A stretch of DNA of 64,000 nucleotides from Escherichia coli (GCF_051903065.1 NZ_CP178438.1); one strand, 5' to 3'; positions 45,955 through 54,869 are shown, counted from the stretch's first letter. Numbers and translations: made by a program. The notes: a model not told the origin generated them from the letters alone.

Positions 45955-46248
45955 CTATTGATTATCAACAGGAAGAAAAGAAACCAAACGTAACCCATCC
46001 AAATCCACCGGAATACGTCTGTTTTCTCCCCAGGTCTGAAATTCAAAACCCGACTCGGTATTGGTCACCCAGGCCATCACCACATTTCCGCAACCAGCCA
46101 GTTGGGTAATTTGCTGCCAGATCATCTCCCGAATACGTTTTGATGTATCACCAACATACACACCGGCACGCACTTCCAGTAGCCAGATTGCGAGCCGTCC
46201 ACGTAAGCGCGGAGGGACATTTTCTGTAACAACCACGACCATGCTCAT
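45955..46248 (-). CDS. cas2: Cas2 (type I-E adaptation)
   Basis: 97 aa, [26 protein letters not shown]...; 4-nt overlap with cas1; adjacent to leader. Confidence 0.95.
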
Positions 46249-47168
46249 CCGCCGCGCCCCCGGTGACCACTATCACCCAGCGTTTCAGGTTCAGGGATGG
46301 CAGGCGGTAACATATCCGGCGCGGGTTGTGGTGGTTCAATTTCACCTGCAGCAAGGACTTCCTCAATTAACGGTATTAATTTGCCCGTTAACTTAGTGCT
46401 ACGGAAAATATCGCGACAGGCTAATCTGACTTCTTTATCAGATTCTGCCGGGTGTCTTGCCGCTATTTCAAATGCCTTTGGCACAACCGAATCAAATTTA
46501 ATGATATCGGCTATGTCATAAACAAATGAAAGCGGTTTGCCACTATGAATAAATCCAATAGCGGGCGCATATCCCGCGGCTAATACTGCCGCTTCAGAAA
46601 TACCGTACAGACATGATGTGGCAGCACTGATGCAGCGATTCACAACATCGCCTTTTTCCCAGTCTTTAGGATCGTATTTGCGACCATTCCATTTCACACC
46701 ATATTGTTTCGCCAGTAATGCATAGGTCTGGCGAACGCGGGATCCCTCAATTCCCCGTAGCTGATCCACTGAACGGCGAGCTGGCGGTGGCTCACGAAAA
46801 CGTAATTCATACATTTTGCGCACCACCTTCAGGCGTAGATCTTCCGTTAAAGCCAGCTTTGCCTGGTAGAGTAATTTATCTGCCCGCGCCCCTCCGGGTT
46901 GTCCGGAAGAGTAAACGCGAACGCCCGCTTCACCGACCCAGACCAGCAGTGTTCCCACCGTGGCGGCCAGATGCACCGCCGCGTGGGAAACTCTCGTTCC
47001 CGGTTCGAGCATAATGCAGGCGACCGATCCCACCGGAATGTGCGTGCGGATCCCGGTTTTGTCGATCAGCACGAAAGCGCCGTCCAGTACGTCGATTTGA
47101 CCGTACTGGAGGAAGATCATAGAGGTGCGATCTTTTAACGGGATCGGACTCAGTGGTACAAACGTCAC
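46245..47168 (-). CDS. cas1: Cas1 integrase (type I-E)
   Basis: 307 aa; close to the E. coli K-12 Cas1 sequence as I recall it. Confidence 0.95.
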
Positions 47169-47815
47169 ACCTCTGCTCCGGGTTTGATCAGCATCAGACC
47201 ACAGCCGAACGCGCGGCTTTTGCCATACCCCTGACTGAGACGTTGCAGAAATAACCCGGGATCGGTGACCGTAAGCATCCCCGTATAATCCACGCTACTG
47301 AACTGGATCAGTTGCCGGGAGTTTTCCCGCCGCAGTTGCTGTTGTCGGTAGGCATCAACCGAGGTATCCAGCAGTGTAAAACCGCTTCTCTCCCCCTGCG
47401 CTGCCAGCCAGTCCAGCGCCGCCTGTTGTTGATGCAACCAGACATCACGCCCTTCCGCCTGTCCCCTCACCTGCCGTTTCGCCTCCATCAGCAGATCGTG
47501 GCGCTTGCCCGCTTTACAAATTGTGGGATTCGCCCGCAGGTTGAAACAAAGGGATTGTCCGGTACGCAGCTCCGGAGCAAATGACCGGCATTCGATAGTG
47601 AAAGTTTCACTTTCCGCCGGGCGTTCCTGCGAGAGGACAAAAAAGCGAAACGCACCCTGAAGTTCCTCCCGACGATAAAGAAATTGCCTTTCTTTGCCGC
47701 CAGGGAAGAGATCCCACAGCCACTGATGCATCACATATTCACCGCGATCCACCAGATGCAGCAACTGCGCAGGCAAAAGCTGAGCGGTATGTAAGGTTAT
47801 TCTTGAGAGGTACAT
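47165..47815 (-). CDS. casE: Cas6e (CasE) crRNA endoribonuclease
   Basis: ORF 47165..47953; start placed at MYLSRITL (ATG 47815, AGGAGG RBS), 216 aa; C-terminal glycine-rich segment GYGKSRAFGCGLM. Confidence 0.88.
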   Translation of the reverse strand: MYLSRITLHTAQLLPAQLLHLVDRGEYVMHQWLWDLFPGGKERQFLYRREELQGAFRFFVLSQERPAESETFTIECRSFAPELRTGQSLCFNLRANPTICKAGKRHDLLMEAKRQVRGQAEGRDVWLHQQQAALDWLAAQGERSGFTLLDTSVDAYRQQQLRRENSRQLIQFSSVDYTGMLTVTDPGLFLQRLSQGYGKSRAFGCGLMLIKPGAEV

Positions 47816-52144: not shown

Positions 52145-52169
52145 TGGCGTCATCCGACGCCAGGGCATC

Positions 52170-54869
52170 TCAATCAACCTTGCCAATCAATCCTTCCGTA
52201 GCCGAATACCCGCAGCTTTCGTCATCGGTGACTAAAATCACGTTTGCCATCTCCGGATCTTGCCGTTGTTCAATGCACCACTGCCTGAACGCTTCCCCTT
52301 CCAGTAAAGAAAATTCATCCCGATGTTTTTTCCACCAGCTTCGACGCACTCTGGCAACGCTCATTTCCCATGCGTGAGCACCGCTGGCATAAGGCTTCAC
52401 CACACCGTCAATACAGGTAGCCAGCCACAGGGAAACAGACTCTTCAGCCAGACGTGTCGACAGCTTTTCCGGGAGGTAATCGTTGATATTGGCGGCATAG
52501 CCGGGCCTGAAGTTCAGCATAAACTTTTTAGCCATTGCGCGATCGCAGTAATATTTGCCCACTTGCTCCTGCTCGCTGCGGGCAAATCCTTCCGGCATTA
52601 CCACGTCCTCACCGTAGACGGATTCAATAAGAAGCCGGGCTGCGTGTGGCATCTGAATAGCGCCTTGCTCACGCAATACTCGCTGCGTCAGCCAGATTCG
52701 CCCATGATCGGGGTAGACATATGCGCTGTTACGCATCGCACTACCAAACCATTCGTCACCCGGAGAGTCGTCCCAGACGGGGGCCAGAATCAGCAATTCA
52801 GGAGGGGAACGCTCGTCTTTTCCATCACGTTTTAACTGACCATTAATATCACGAATATGCCGTTGTAATCGCCCCGCTCGCTGGATCAGCAAATCAATGG
52901 GGGCCAGGTCGGAGATCATTTCGTCCAGGTCAATATCCACACTTTGCTCAATTACTTGTGTACAAACAATGACTTGAGATGATCTTTTTAAACTACAATT
53001 TTTACCAAAGCGTGCCAGCGTTTCCGTTTCAATTCGCTGGCGATCGCTAAAAGCAAAGCGGCTATGAAAAAGTGAAAGGCTGGAAGCAGGAATGACGCCG
53101 CGGGCAAGTAACTGACGATAAACCTTAATAGCGTCATCGACAGAATTCCGGATCCAGGCGATGCATTTCCCCTGACTTACCGCTGATTCGATACGCGCAA
53201 TACATTCTTGTTCGCTATGAAGCCAACCCACGCTCACGCTACGCTCAACGTCTTTGCGCGTCGCTACCCGGTGCGAATGCACATCGGATTTCGTGACATG
53301 CGTCAGCCAGGGGTAATCATCCTTTTCTAGGAACGGAGCTTCTTGCTGGCCCTCTGTGCCACGCGCAAAGGCGGCGACAAGTTTGTCGCGCTGCTGTTGA
53401 GATAACGTAGCAGAAAGCAAAATGACGCTGTTTCCGCCACGCACCTGTCGCTCAATCAACCCTTCAAGAATGTACGACATGTAAGCGTCACAGGCGTGGA
53501 TCTCATCAGCCAGCAGGATTTTGTTACTCAACCCCAGAAGCCGCAGATTATTATGTTTAAACGGCATCACTGCCATCATCGCCTGATCCAGCGTGCCGAC
53601 GCCAATTTCAGCCAGTAAAGCCTTCTTGTTACTGTCGGCAAACCAGGCTGCACATCCTTGACTGAACGCTTGTTCATCCGGTTCTTCTGACCCGACTAAA
53701 TCACCGGACCAGAGTGATTCATTAAAGCGTTCCATTAATGTACGGGCGCTGTGTGCCAGCACCAGGCTGGGGCGGGATTCTGGCGAAAAGAAAGCAAGCC
53801 AGGTTTTGACCAGCCGATCGTACATGGCATTGGCCGTTGCCATTGTTGGCAGGCCAAAAAACAAACCCTGAGCTTTATTCTCAGCCATCAACCTGTGCGC
53901 CAGGATAAGCGCCGCTTCTGTTTTACCTGCGCCAGTCACATCTTCCAGAATAAATAACTGTGGCCCTGGCTGGCTGATATCCAGATCCAGTACCTTTTGC
54001 TGTAATGGTGTCGGGTGCTCAATAAAAGGAAACAGCGTATTAATTCCGGTGAAAGGTGCGGTTTCTGCTTTTGGAGGAAAGACGGTTAAGGCGTTTTGAG
54101 CCTGAACTAAAGTTTTCTGCCAGTAATCTTTAATATTCATTGTCTGTGCGACGCGTGGAAAAAATCGCGTTGACGAACCCGTCCAGTCTGCGAGTACGAC
54201 TGTTGCAGAGATATACCAGGAAAGTTGTTTTAAAAGTTCAACGCCCTCGTCATCATCCCAGAATGTGGGAATCTCTATGAGCGGAAACAGTGACTTGATT
54301 TCAAGGAGAAAATCTCGTGCGGCAGCTTTGTCTTCAGGCAGGAAATTATCCAGTTCATCAATACGGTCAGGGGGCCGACCATGATGCCCGGTAGTCATGG
54401 GCATCCACATCGCTATTACACGTTTAAGTTTGCGAGTAGAGAGTGAAGAGGCAGGAAGCAATTCTTCGCATTCACTTAAATAATGATGCCACAACCAGTA
54501 GCCCAGCGTTGAATGAGAGATCTTTTCGTAATTCTTTCTTGCGCCTTCCGGAACCTTGAGTTGTGGGTGCAGGTAAAGTTGCTGAAATGAGCGGGCAAAT
54601 TTTCCAATATCGTGCCAGCACAACAACCAGGCGAAAAATTGAGCCGCCTGTTCCTTGTCAGAAATCCCTAATTGACGAAAATAATCAGCCAGCCCGAAGC
54701 AATTTCTTTTAACCATTAAATAGCCCATCGCGGCCACATCCAGCGAATGCCAGCAAAGAAGGTGATAGTCGTCACCCCCTTCTTTCTCGTCGCGTCGGGT
54801 TTTTCCCCAGAAATCAAAGAAAGTCACAATATTTTTATCCTTCAGTAAACTTAAAGGATATTTACGCAT
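52170..54869 (-). CDS. cas3: Cas3 HD nuclease / SF2 helicase (type I-E)
   Basis: 899 aa; N-terminal HD motifs (LLCWHSLDV, WHDIGKF), helicase Walker A GAGKTEAAL and DEIHA box; highly AT-rich upstream region. Confidence 0.92.
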   Translation of the reverse strand: MRKYPLSLLKDKNIVTFFDFWGKTRRDEKEGGDDYHLLCWHSLDVAAMGYLMVKRNCFGLADYFRQLGISDKEQAAQFFAWLLCWHDIGKFARSFQQLYLHPQLKVPEGARKNYEKISHSTLGYWLWHHYLSECEELLPASSLSTRKLKRVIAMWMPMTTGHHGRPPDRIDELDNFLPEDKAAARDFLLEIKSLFPLIEIPTFWDDDEGVELLKQLSWYISATVVLADWTGSSTRFFPRVAQTMNIKDYWQKTLVQAQNALTVFPPKAETAPFTGINTLFPFIEHPTPLQQKVLDLDISQPGPQLFILEDVTGAGKTEAALILAHRLMAENKAQGLFFGLPTMATANAMYDRLVKTWLAFFSPESRPSLVLAHSARTLMERFNESLWSGDLVGSEEPDEQAFSQGCAAWFADSNKKALLAEIGVGTLDQAMMAVMPFKHNNLRLLGLSNKILLADEIHACDAYMSYILEGLIERQVRGGNSVILLSATLSQQQRDKLVAAFARGTEGQQEAPFLEKDDYPWLTHVTKSDVHSHRVATRKDVERSVSVGWLHSEQECIARIESAVSQGKCIAWIRNSVDDAIKVYRQLLARGVIPASSLSLFHSRFAFSDRQRIETETLARFGKNCSLKRSSQVIVCTQVIEQSVDIDLDEMISDLAPIDLLIQRAGRLQRHIRDINGQLKRDGKDERSPPELLILAPVWDDSPGDEWFGSAMRNSAYVYPDHGRIWLTQRVLREQGAIQMPHAARLLIESVYGEDVVMPEGFARSEQEQVGKYYCDRAMAKKFMLNFRPGYAANINDYLPEKLSTRLAEESVSLWLATCIDGVVKPYASGAHAWEMSVARVRRSWWKKHRDEFSLLEGEAFRQWCIEQRQDPEMANVILVTDDESCGYSATEGLIGKVD

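Follow-up and report, generated by a model that had tools for sequence, protein, structure and literature searches.

The type I-E CRISPR-Cas locus of Escherichia coli occurs with two cas variants, the majority variant E1, which groups with Salmonella and E. albertii, and the minority variant E2 of K-12, and whole cassettes together with their leaders interchange (Almendros et al., 2014, mBio; PMC3903273). The same study reported that hok/sok is present except with E2, that E1 and E2 share a degenerate repeat and a spacer on the iap side, and that homologous recombination occurs among E1 alleles. It had been inferred earlier that all cas genes are transferred together, through recombination at the CRISPR or in flanking sequences (Touchon and Rocha, 2010; PMC2886076), and CRISPR-A/T repeat and leader-A/T variants have been defined, with ‘Cas-EO’ as the type matching leader-A and CRISPR-A (Diez-Villasenor et al., 2013; PMC3737337). 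Here we describe the cas genes at positions 45955 to 54869 of a 64,000-nucleotide stretch of E. coli DNA (NZ_CP178438.1), hereafter the window. We conclude with high confidence that they belong to a complete, intact and internally coherent cas-E1 type I-E locus at the usual site between iap and cysH, the E2 cassette of K-12 being the minority variant. The cas-E1 cassette is an already described, ordinary E. coli polymorphism.

Content and identity of the cas locus

The region from about 41.7 to 59.8 kb of the window is the E. coli cysN-cysD-iap … cysH-cysI-cysJ neighborhood. Between iap and cysH, positions 45955–54869 hold exactly eight intact cas genes, cas2 through cas3, all on the minus strand and in the type I-E order cas3-cse1-cse2-cas7-cas5-cas6e-cas1-cas2. 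Every protein scores above its curated NCBIfam I-E cut-off.

45955–46248, minus strand: cas2e, 97 aa (TIGR01873, 131 bits against a cut-off of 33)
46245–47168, minus strand: cas1e, 307 aa, GTG start (TIGR03638, 379 bits against a cut-off of 216)
47165–47815, minus strand: cas6e, 216 aa (TIGR01907, 291 bits)
47797–48543, minus strand: cas5e, 248 aa (TIGR01868, 160 bits)
48554–49609, minus strand: cas7e, 351 aa (TIGR01869, 448 bits)
49621–50160, minus strand: cse2 (casB), 179 aa (TIGR02548, 101 bits)
50157–51719, minus strand: cse1 (casA, cas8e), 520 aa (TIGR02547, 611 bits)
52170–54869, minus strand: cas3, 899 aa, HD nuclease and helicase (cas3_HD and cas3_core domain models, both above cut-off)

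The Cas3 protein begins MRKYPLSLLKDKNIVTFFDFWGK; both this start and the span of the cassette had been given exactly in an initial annotation of the window. The models for the K-12-type proteins exclude their counterparts here, Cse1 reaching 101 bits with the CasA equivalog NF007247 (cut-off 576) and Cas3 431 bits with the Cas3 equivalog NF007248 (cut-off 569). The Cas1 alignment columns E141, H208 and D221 are invariant between the window and K-12 proteins, and the eight intact genes may support spacer acquisition, CRISPR RNA processing and interference. E. coli strain 23CRST027, in which the RefSeq annotation gives the same genes, matches the cassette and its surroundings at 100% identity over 10.2 kb.

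All eight cas genes are 94–99% identical at the DNA level to the cassette of strain O111:H8 (cas2 99%, cas6e 95%), as against 53–72% to K-12, and cas1 and cas2 are 95–99% identical to the same E1 cassettes as are the other six genes. The elements linked to the E1 variant are all present: the CRISPR-A repeat with its leader, hok, and the shared iap-proximal degenerate repeat and spacer. A search of 5426 complete E. coli genomes gave an E1-type cassette (query coverage of 80% or more) in 2408 and the E2 (K-12) type in 1114, nearly all of the latter 95–100% identical; E2 cassettes found in 1223 genomes are all at least 95% identical, except one at 90–95%. In the rows of this collection sampled for E1/E2 hybrids, the partial matches seen were deletions associated with insertion sequences. 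One measurement counts against the E1 assignment: the guanine-plus-cytosine (GC) content of the window cas genes is 50.9%, compared with a published E1 mean of 53.5%, while the 45.6% of K-12 equals the published E2 value.

The exact allele in the window is rare (only 4 of the complete genomes are at least 99% identical to it), and it is an ordinary patchwork from homologous recombination among E1 alleles. When six other E1 strains were compared with it in sliding windows, Res13 matched at 100% between the leader and about 50500 and once more within cas3 (52460–53500), and 100181 matched at 100% over 48860–51100. Between about 50500 and 52400, identity to Res13 is only 87–96%, the affected parts being the 5′ half of cse1 and, in cas3, the 3′ end. 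In another E1 strain, UTAK-3, cse2 and cse1 (positions 9057–11149 of its locus) are only 83–84% DNA-identical to those of the window while neighboring genes are 92–96% identical, and cas3 is frameshifted; this strain is probably a member of the sub-clade of B1 strains for which Almendros et al. reported a divergent Cascade.

Comparison with K-12 MG1655

Each gene was aligned globally with the K-12 MG1655 locus as protein and as DNA, the window was compared with the K-12 locus by blastn, and synonymous and non-synonymous divergence was estimated by the Nei–Gojobori method, with pS the proportion of synonymous differences and dN and dS the non-synonymous and synonymous divergence. The protein identities fall into two classes: 82.5% for Cas2 and 83.1% for Cas1, and 27.4% for Cas6e, 29.3% for Cas5, 28.0% for Cas7, 20.2% for Cse2, 19.9% for Cse1 and 27.3% for Cas3. 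The initial annotation had noticed this contrast, and it is real, with its step at the cas6e/cas1 junction; uniform identity to K-12 across the eight genes, which the same annotation had named as the result that would tell against its interpretation, was not seen at the protein level. Its statement that Cas1 and Cas2 are very close to those of K-12 is overstated. At the DNA level cas1 and cas2 are 70.8% and 71.8% identical to K-12, outside the near-allelic range of the E2 population (95–100%), and the other six genes lie at about 53%, which is alignment noise. The flanking genes are 99–100% identical as proteins and 97–99% as DNA.

Synonymous sites tell the same story for all eight cas genes. 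Relative to K-12, pS is saturated throughout (0.73 for cas2, 0.82 for cas1, 0.72–0.85 for the others), as opposed to 0.05–0.12 in the flanking iap and cys genes. Because of this saturation, the divergence of cas1 and cas2 from K-12 is as old as synonymous sites are able to show, and their proteins are merely far more constrained: dN is 0.13 for both genes, with very low dN/dS, and 0.74–1.05 for the other six.

Similarity detected by blastn covers the array, leader, cas2 and cas1 as far as 47156, a point 12 nt short of the start of cas1. From 47157 to 55211 the window has no blastn match to the K-12 locus, and similarity resumes only at 55212. The block that differs from K-12 is nevertheless a single piece, running from inside the array (about 45433) to 55211 beside hok rather than starting at the cas6e/cas1 junction, an extent that agrees with the published E1/E2 replacement (PMC3903273; PMC2886076). 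The elements at its two ends are as follows.

45344–45859, minus strand: CRISPR2.1 array, comprising a terminal degenerate repeat, the oldest spacer and eight 29-nt repeats
45860–45954, minus strand: AT-rich leader, 95 bp, between cas2 and the array, part of the block about 70% DNA-identical to K-12
55062–55214, minus strand: hok-family toxin gene, 50 aa, between cas3 and cysH, identified by translation and by the annotation of 23CRST027

The degenerate terminal repeat occupies 45344–45372, and the regular repeats follow from 45403 with an exact period of 61 nt (a 29-nt palindromic repeat and a 32-nt spacer). The repeat, CGGTTTATCCCCGCTGGCGCGGGGAACAC, is the CRISPR-A variant, ending in …AACAC (…GGGGAACAC), and transcription runs in the cas direction. 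The degenerate terminal repeat is the same in the window, K-12 and O111, as are the oldest spacer and the first repeat; from about 45433, in the second-oldest spacer, the sequences diverge. At the other end, hok is absent from K-12, which keeps only sokX, and high identity returns at 55212.

Two smaller features of the array and flanks were also recorded. The third repeat of the array (45525) begins with A instead of C (AGGTTTATCC…) and is the sole variant among the eight regular repeats. In the flanks (41695–44032, and 55479–59798; cysN, cysD, cysH, cysI and cysJ among their genes), pS relative to K-12 is fairly high and uneven, from 0.046 in iap to 0.124 in cysN, and cysH of the window is nearer to K-12 than to O111:H8, which suggests that recombination tracts reach into the flanks of the CRISPR-I locus.

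Adaptation and interference modules across species

The step at the cas6e/cas1 junction was followed beyond E. coli in a panel of 80 species, one genome each, made up of the best 80 of 202 Cas1 matches ranked against the window Cas1; all eight proteins of each locus were scored against both the E1 (window) and the E2 (K-12) references. Panel Cas1 proteins are 73–99% identical to that of the window whichever Cascade lineage adjoins them, and Cas2 proteins are 70–99% identical to both references, over a range that spans Enterobacterales, Oceanospirillales, Methylophaga, Alteromonadaceae, Halopseudomonas and even Parasutterella. Cas1 tracks the host genus. The interference proteins sort otherwise: 55 loci belong to an E1 lineage and 9 to an E2 lineage, with a few others besides.

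For the window, the nearest relatives rank nearly alike by Cas1 and Cas2 and by Cascade (adaptation/interference identity 98/96% for E. albertii, 95/79% for Salmonella, 94/80% for Citrobacter, 94/79% for Klebsiella, 86/64% for Atlantibacter and 84/49% for Pectobacterium), and the cassette is therefore coherent. The K-12 cassette gives a different picture. Its nearest Cas1 and Cas2 (94, 92, 91 and 90% identical) adjoin E1-lineage Cascades that are only 26–27% identical to its own, whereas its nearest Cascade, that of Citrobacter amalonaticus (64%), adjoins Cas1 and Cas2 84% identical to those of K-12; this mismatch was recovered in 1000 of 1000 bootstrap replicates. DNA similarity between K-12 and E1-lineage loci starts exactly at the cas1 start codon. 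Moreover, pairs of loci from one genus that carry different Cascade lineages share adaptation modules, at 95% identity in Marinomonas, 93% in Oceanospirillum, 90% in Citrobacter and 88% in Methylophaga.

These comparisons point to a history in two parts. Cas1e and Cas2e are under very strong purifying selection across the family, with the Cascade subunits and Cas3 diverging several times faster. Early in the history of type I-E, the adaptation module (cas1-cas2-leader-repeat) and the interference module (cas3 to cas6e) would have been re-paired at the cas6e|cas1 junction, so that two deeply divergent interference lineages would now adjoin similar, host-typical adaptation modules. The window Cas1 and Cas2 would then look K-12-like because of their unusual conservation and because of this ancient re-pairing. 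The junction would be an old and repeatedly used module boundary in gammaproteobacterial type I-E loci, and from the sequence comparisons we infer both a direction and an early date for the reassortment, in which the K-12 cassette, and not that of the window, would be the re-paired product. Adaptation and effector modules evolve semi-independently, and the decoupling described here fits that view.

Two short contigs in the panel have unexpected labels. Their Cas proteins, in JAEWTL010000035.1 (a metagenome-assembled genome, MAG, named ‘Bacillota bacterium’) and JAIJJM010000114.1 (a ‘Collinsella sp.’ MAG), are mostly 96–99% identical to E. coli E1, with Cse2 of the latter at 84%, and both are most likely misbinned Escherichia contigs.

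Alternative explanations

The initial annotation proposed allelic replacement, namely that a K-12-like locus had recently received foreign genes from cas3 to cas6e by recombination at the cas6e/cas1 junction while keeping K-12-type cas1 and cas2. The fall in protein identity from 83% to 20–29% exactly at the junction is what such an event would leave, as is the loss of DNA similarity so close to the cas1 start. However, cas1 and cas2 that had been kept from a K-12-like locus would not be expected to stand at 71–72% DNA identity, with saturated synonymous sites, between flanks at 97–99%, nor to match those of other E1 cassettes at 95–99%; K-12 also has a different leader and a different leader-proximal array, and the window repeat is CRISPR-A, not T. 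Synonymous divergence and DNA identity together refute a recent hybrid with K-12, and we consider replacement in this strain extremely improbable. What remains of the proposal is the position it singled out, which appears to be an ancient module boundary.

Two further accounts do without a recent event and concern the older history. If E1 and E2 split once, as whole cassettes with no exchange of modules, then slower evolution of Cas1 and Cas2 might alone produce the step. Within the E1 lineage these two proteins do diverge about 3–4 times more slowly than the interference proteins (as in the 95/79, 86/64 and 84/49 pairs above), and the very low dN/dS of cas1 and cas2 agrees with this. Yet at the same Cas1 and Cas2 identity to the window (84%), interference identity is 49% in Pectobacterium and 25% in K-12, 28 of the 55 loci with E1-lineage Cascades have Cas1 and Cas2 nearer to K-12 than those of any E2-lineage locus, and same-genus pairs share their adaptation modules across both Cascade lineages. 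We judge rate differences alone to be an unlikely explanation. Somewhat less unlikely, though still doubtful, is homogenization, in which cas1-cas2 of co-resident I-E cassettes would repeatedly be made alike by gene conversion or recombination while the interference genes were too divergent to take part, a process that would mimic reassortment. It was on account of most cas genes being too divergent to recombine that Touchon and Rocha (PMC2886076) proposed recombination at CRISPR or flanking sequences. At about 70% identity or more, the DNA of cas1-cas2 may be alike enough for this, and the repeats next to it are almost identical in all panel loci; the tracking of host genus by adaptation modules would also follow. 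Against it, a DNA identity of about 70% is little for homologous recombination to act on in enterobacteria. Within E. coli, Cas1 and Cas2 of E1 and E2 agree at only 84%, a figure no higher than those between genera, and homogenization has therefore not taken place there.

On balance we favor module re-pairing, and think it probable that cas6e|cas1 is a recurrent, trans-specific boundary at which E1-like and E2-like interference lineages stand beside the same host-typical Cas1-Cas2-leader-repeat modules, with the K-12 cassette re-paired. Several considerations lower our confidence in this account. It is built on protein identities and bootstrapped nearest neighbors rather than likelihood trees with topology tests; saturation of synonymous sites in both modules rules out dating adaptation and interference separately by dS; the panel was ranked against the window Cas1 and includes no second true E2 cassette (e.g., that of E. 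fergusonii); and Cas1-Cas2 could seem to follow host taxonomy more closely than they do if each host constrains them in its own way.

A CreR-like mini-CRISPR between cas3 and cse1

Regulatory mini-arrays have been predicted widely between cas3 and cas8e (bioRxiv 10.1101/2023.03.03.530964), and repression by CreR has been demonstrated for the I-E locus of S. enterica ATCC 51960 (bioRxiv 10.1101/2023.03.10.532045). The cas3-cse1 spacer of the window contains an element of similar layout.

51720–52169: cas3-cse1 intergenic region in a long form, 450 bp as against 98 bp in the common E1 allele
52061–52144, plus strand: CreR-like mini-CRISPR, antisense to the cas genes, found by repeat scan and folding
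51987–52015, minus strand: predicted target of the pseudo-spacer, found by systematic scan, an ATG protospacer-adjacent motif (PAM; 52015–52013) followed by AGTTAATGAGAAACAAAGATT

A 401-bp segment of the spacer (51765–52165) is lacking in O111, UTAK-3, Res13 and 100181, and the long spacer (at least 80% covered) is found in only 6 of the 5426 complete genomes. The interval over which the window departs from Res13 (about 50500–52400) flanks it on both sides and looks like one recombination tract that inserted or deleted the mini-array.

The mini-CRISPR consists of a degenerate repeat, psiR1 (52061–52089), a 26-nt pseudo-spacer, AGTTAGTGAGATACAAAAATTGGTTC (52090–52115), and a repeat, R2 (52116–52144). 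R2 is near-perfect, with 4 mismatches, and keeps the CCCCGC/GCGGGG hairpin; a further strong hairpin follows, to about 52166. The 3′ end of psiR1, ATTAACCA, agrees with the canonical 5′-handle, ATAAACCG, at 6 of 8 bases. The mini-CRISPR folds into three hairpins, with a z-score of −6.3. As in elements of the CreR type, two repeat-like units thus enclose a short pseudo-spacer within a cas intergenic region, and the pseudo-spacer has partial, seed-anchored complementarity to a PAM-flanked site.

Pseudo-spacer and target (51987–52012) agree along a 21-nt stretch except at positions 6, 12 and 18, which are those that type I Cascade leaves unpaired. The longest seed-type run in 20000 shuffles was 10 nt, against the 21 nt observed, and strain 135 carries a matching change at position 15 in pseudo-spacer and target alike. 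An earlier candidate target picked by eye, the AAGTTCGATTTTCGTATCAC stretch near 51870, was dropped for a mismatch in the seed (seed run 4). The target overlaps the −35 element of a consensus-type promoter-like site on the plus strand (−35 at 52007–52012, −10 at 52030–52035), which faces the mini-array. The target site may correspond to the cse1 promoter.

The same mini-array architecture, with targets flanked by an AAG or ATG PAM, occurs in Klebsiella spallanzanii, Atlantibacter, Pectobacterium, Pluralibacter, Pantoea, Erwinia and Tenebrionibacter. The element of the window belongs to the known class of CreR and regulatory mini-arrays and, by analogy with the described elements, has a putative role in regulating cas expression.

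The spacer gave no blastn match in the search of the window against the K-12 locus, and in a separate comparison it matched K-12 only at the CRISPR repeats of the array; a relationship of the window spacer to the K-12 Pcas region was rejected. The cas3-casA intergenic region of K-12 (about 14482–14510 of the K-12 locus) has a degenerate repeat of its own, ACCTTCCCTACTTAAGTAGGGATAAACCG, antisense to cas3. Its hairpin is intact and its ATAAACCG handle perfect, and it may be the mini-array that Shmakov et al. showed for E. coli. In six loci of Pectobacterium and other Enterobacterales the cas3-cse1 gap reaches 1.0–3.1 kb, which leaves room for extra genes beside a mini-array; toxin-antitoxin cargo at this position has been reported by Shmakov et al.

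Implications

That the window carries the majority cas-E1 variant matters little in itself, both forms and whole-cassette replacement having been described between 2010 and 2014. Its use is rather as a reminder that K-12 is an atypical reference for E. coli CRISPR-Cas, and that protein identity varying along an operon does not speak for a recent mosaic if synonymous sites fail to bear it out. The species panel offers a clean, quantified case of decoupling between adaptation and interference inside one subtype. If the junction is indeed a recurrent boundary, the interference module and not the whole system would be the exchanged unit, and what is essentially one repeat and one acquisition machinery would serve Cas6e and Cascade proteins that are only 20–30% identical. 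The E. coli CRISPR-Cas system is normally silent. Retention of a CreR-like element in a rare E1 allele, when more than 99% of E. coli genomes lack it, provides a natural with/without pair for the effect of CreR.

Relation to described systems

The closest described system is cas-E1 in CRISPR-I arrangement A (PMC3903273), with which the locus shares its site, gene order, repeat variant, hok position, and terminal repeat and oldest spacer, its DNA being 94–99% identical to the E1 cassettes of O111:H8 and many other strains; it departs from the common E1 allele in keeping the 450-bp cas3-cse1 spacer. The I-E cassettes of Salmonella enterica, Citrobacter, Klebsiella and E. albertii have the same interference lineage and adaptation module (identity to the window 92–98% for Cas1, or 93–97% by tblastn, 84–99% for Cas7 and 67–93% for Cas3), but in most of them cas3 and cse1 lie very close together, about 18–170 bp apart.

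The cas-E2 cassette of K-12 (ygcB-ygbF) agrees with that of the window in subtype, gene order and chromosomal site, in a nearly identical repeat (CRISPR-A type in the window, T type in K-12), and in Cas1 and Cas2 that are 83% identical. It differs in its leader and its lower GC content, in the absence of hok, and in Cascade subunits and Cas3 that are only 20–29% identical to those of the window and have no DNA similarity to them.

The mini-CRISPR shares with the CreR class a degenerate repeat, a short pseudo-spacer and a repeat placed between cas3 and cas8e/cse1 in opposite orientation to cas3, together with a target in the same intergenic region. The target predicted in the window is flanked by an ATG PAM and is found on the cas-sense strand, some 270 bp upstream of cse1, whereas that of Salmonella CreR has an AAG PAM and lies at about 140 bp.

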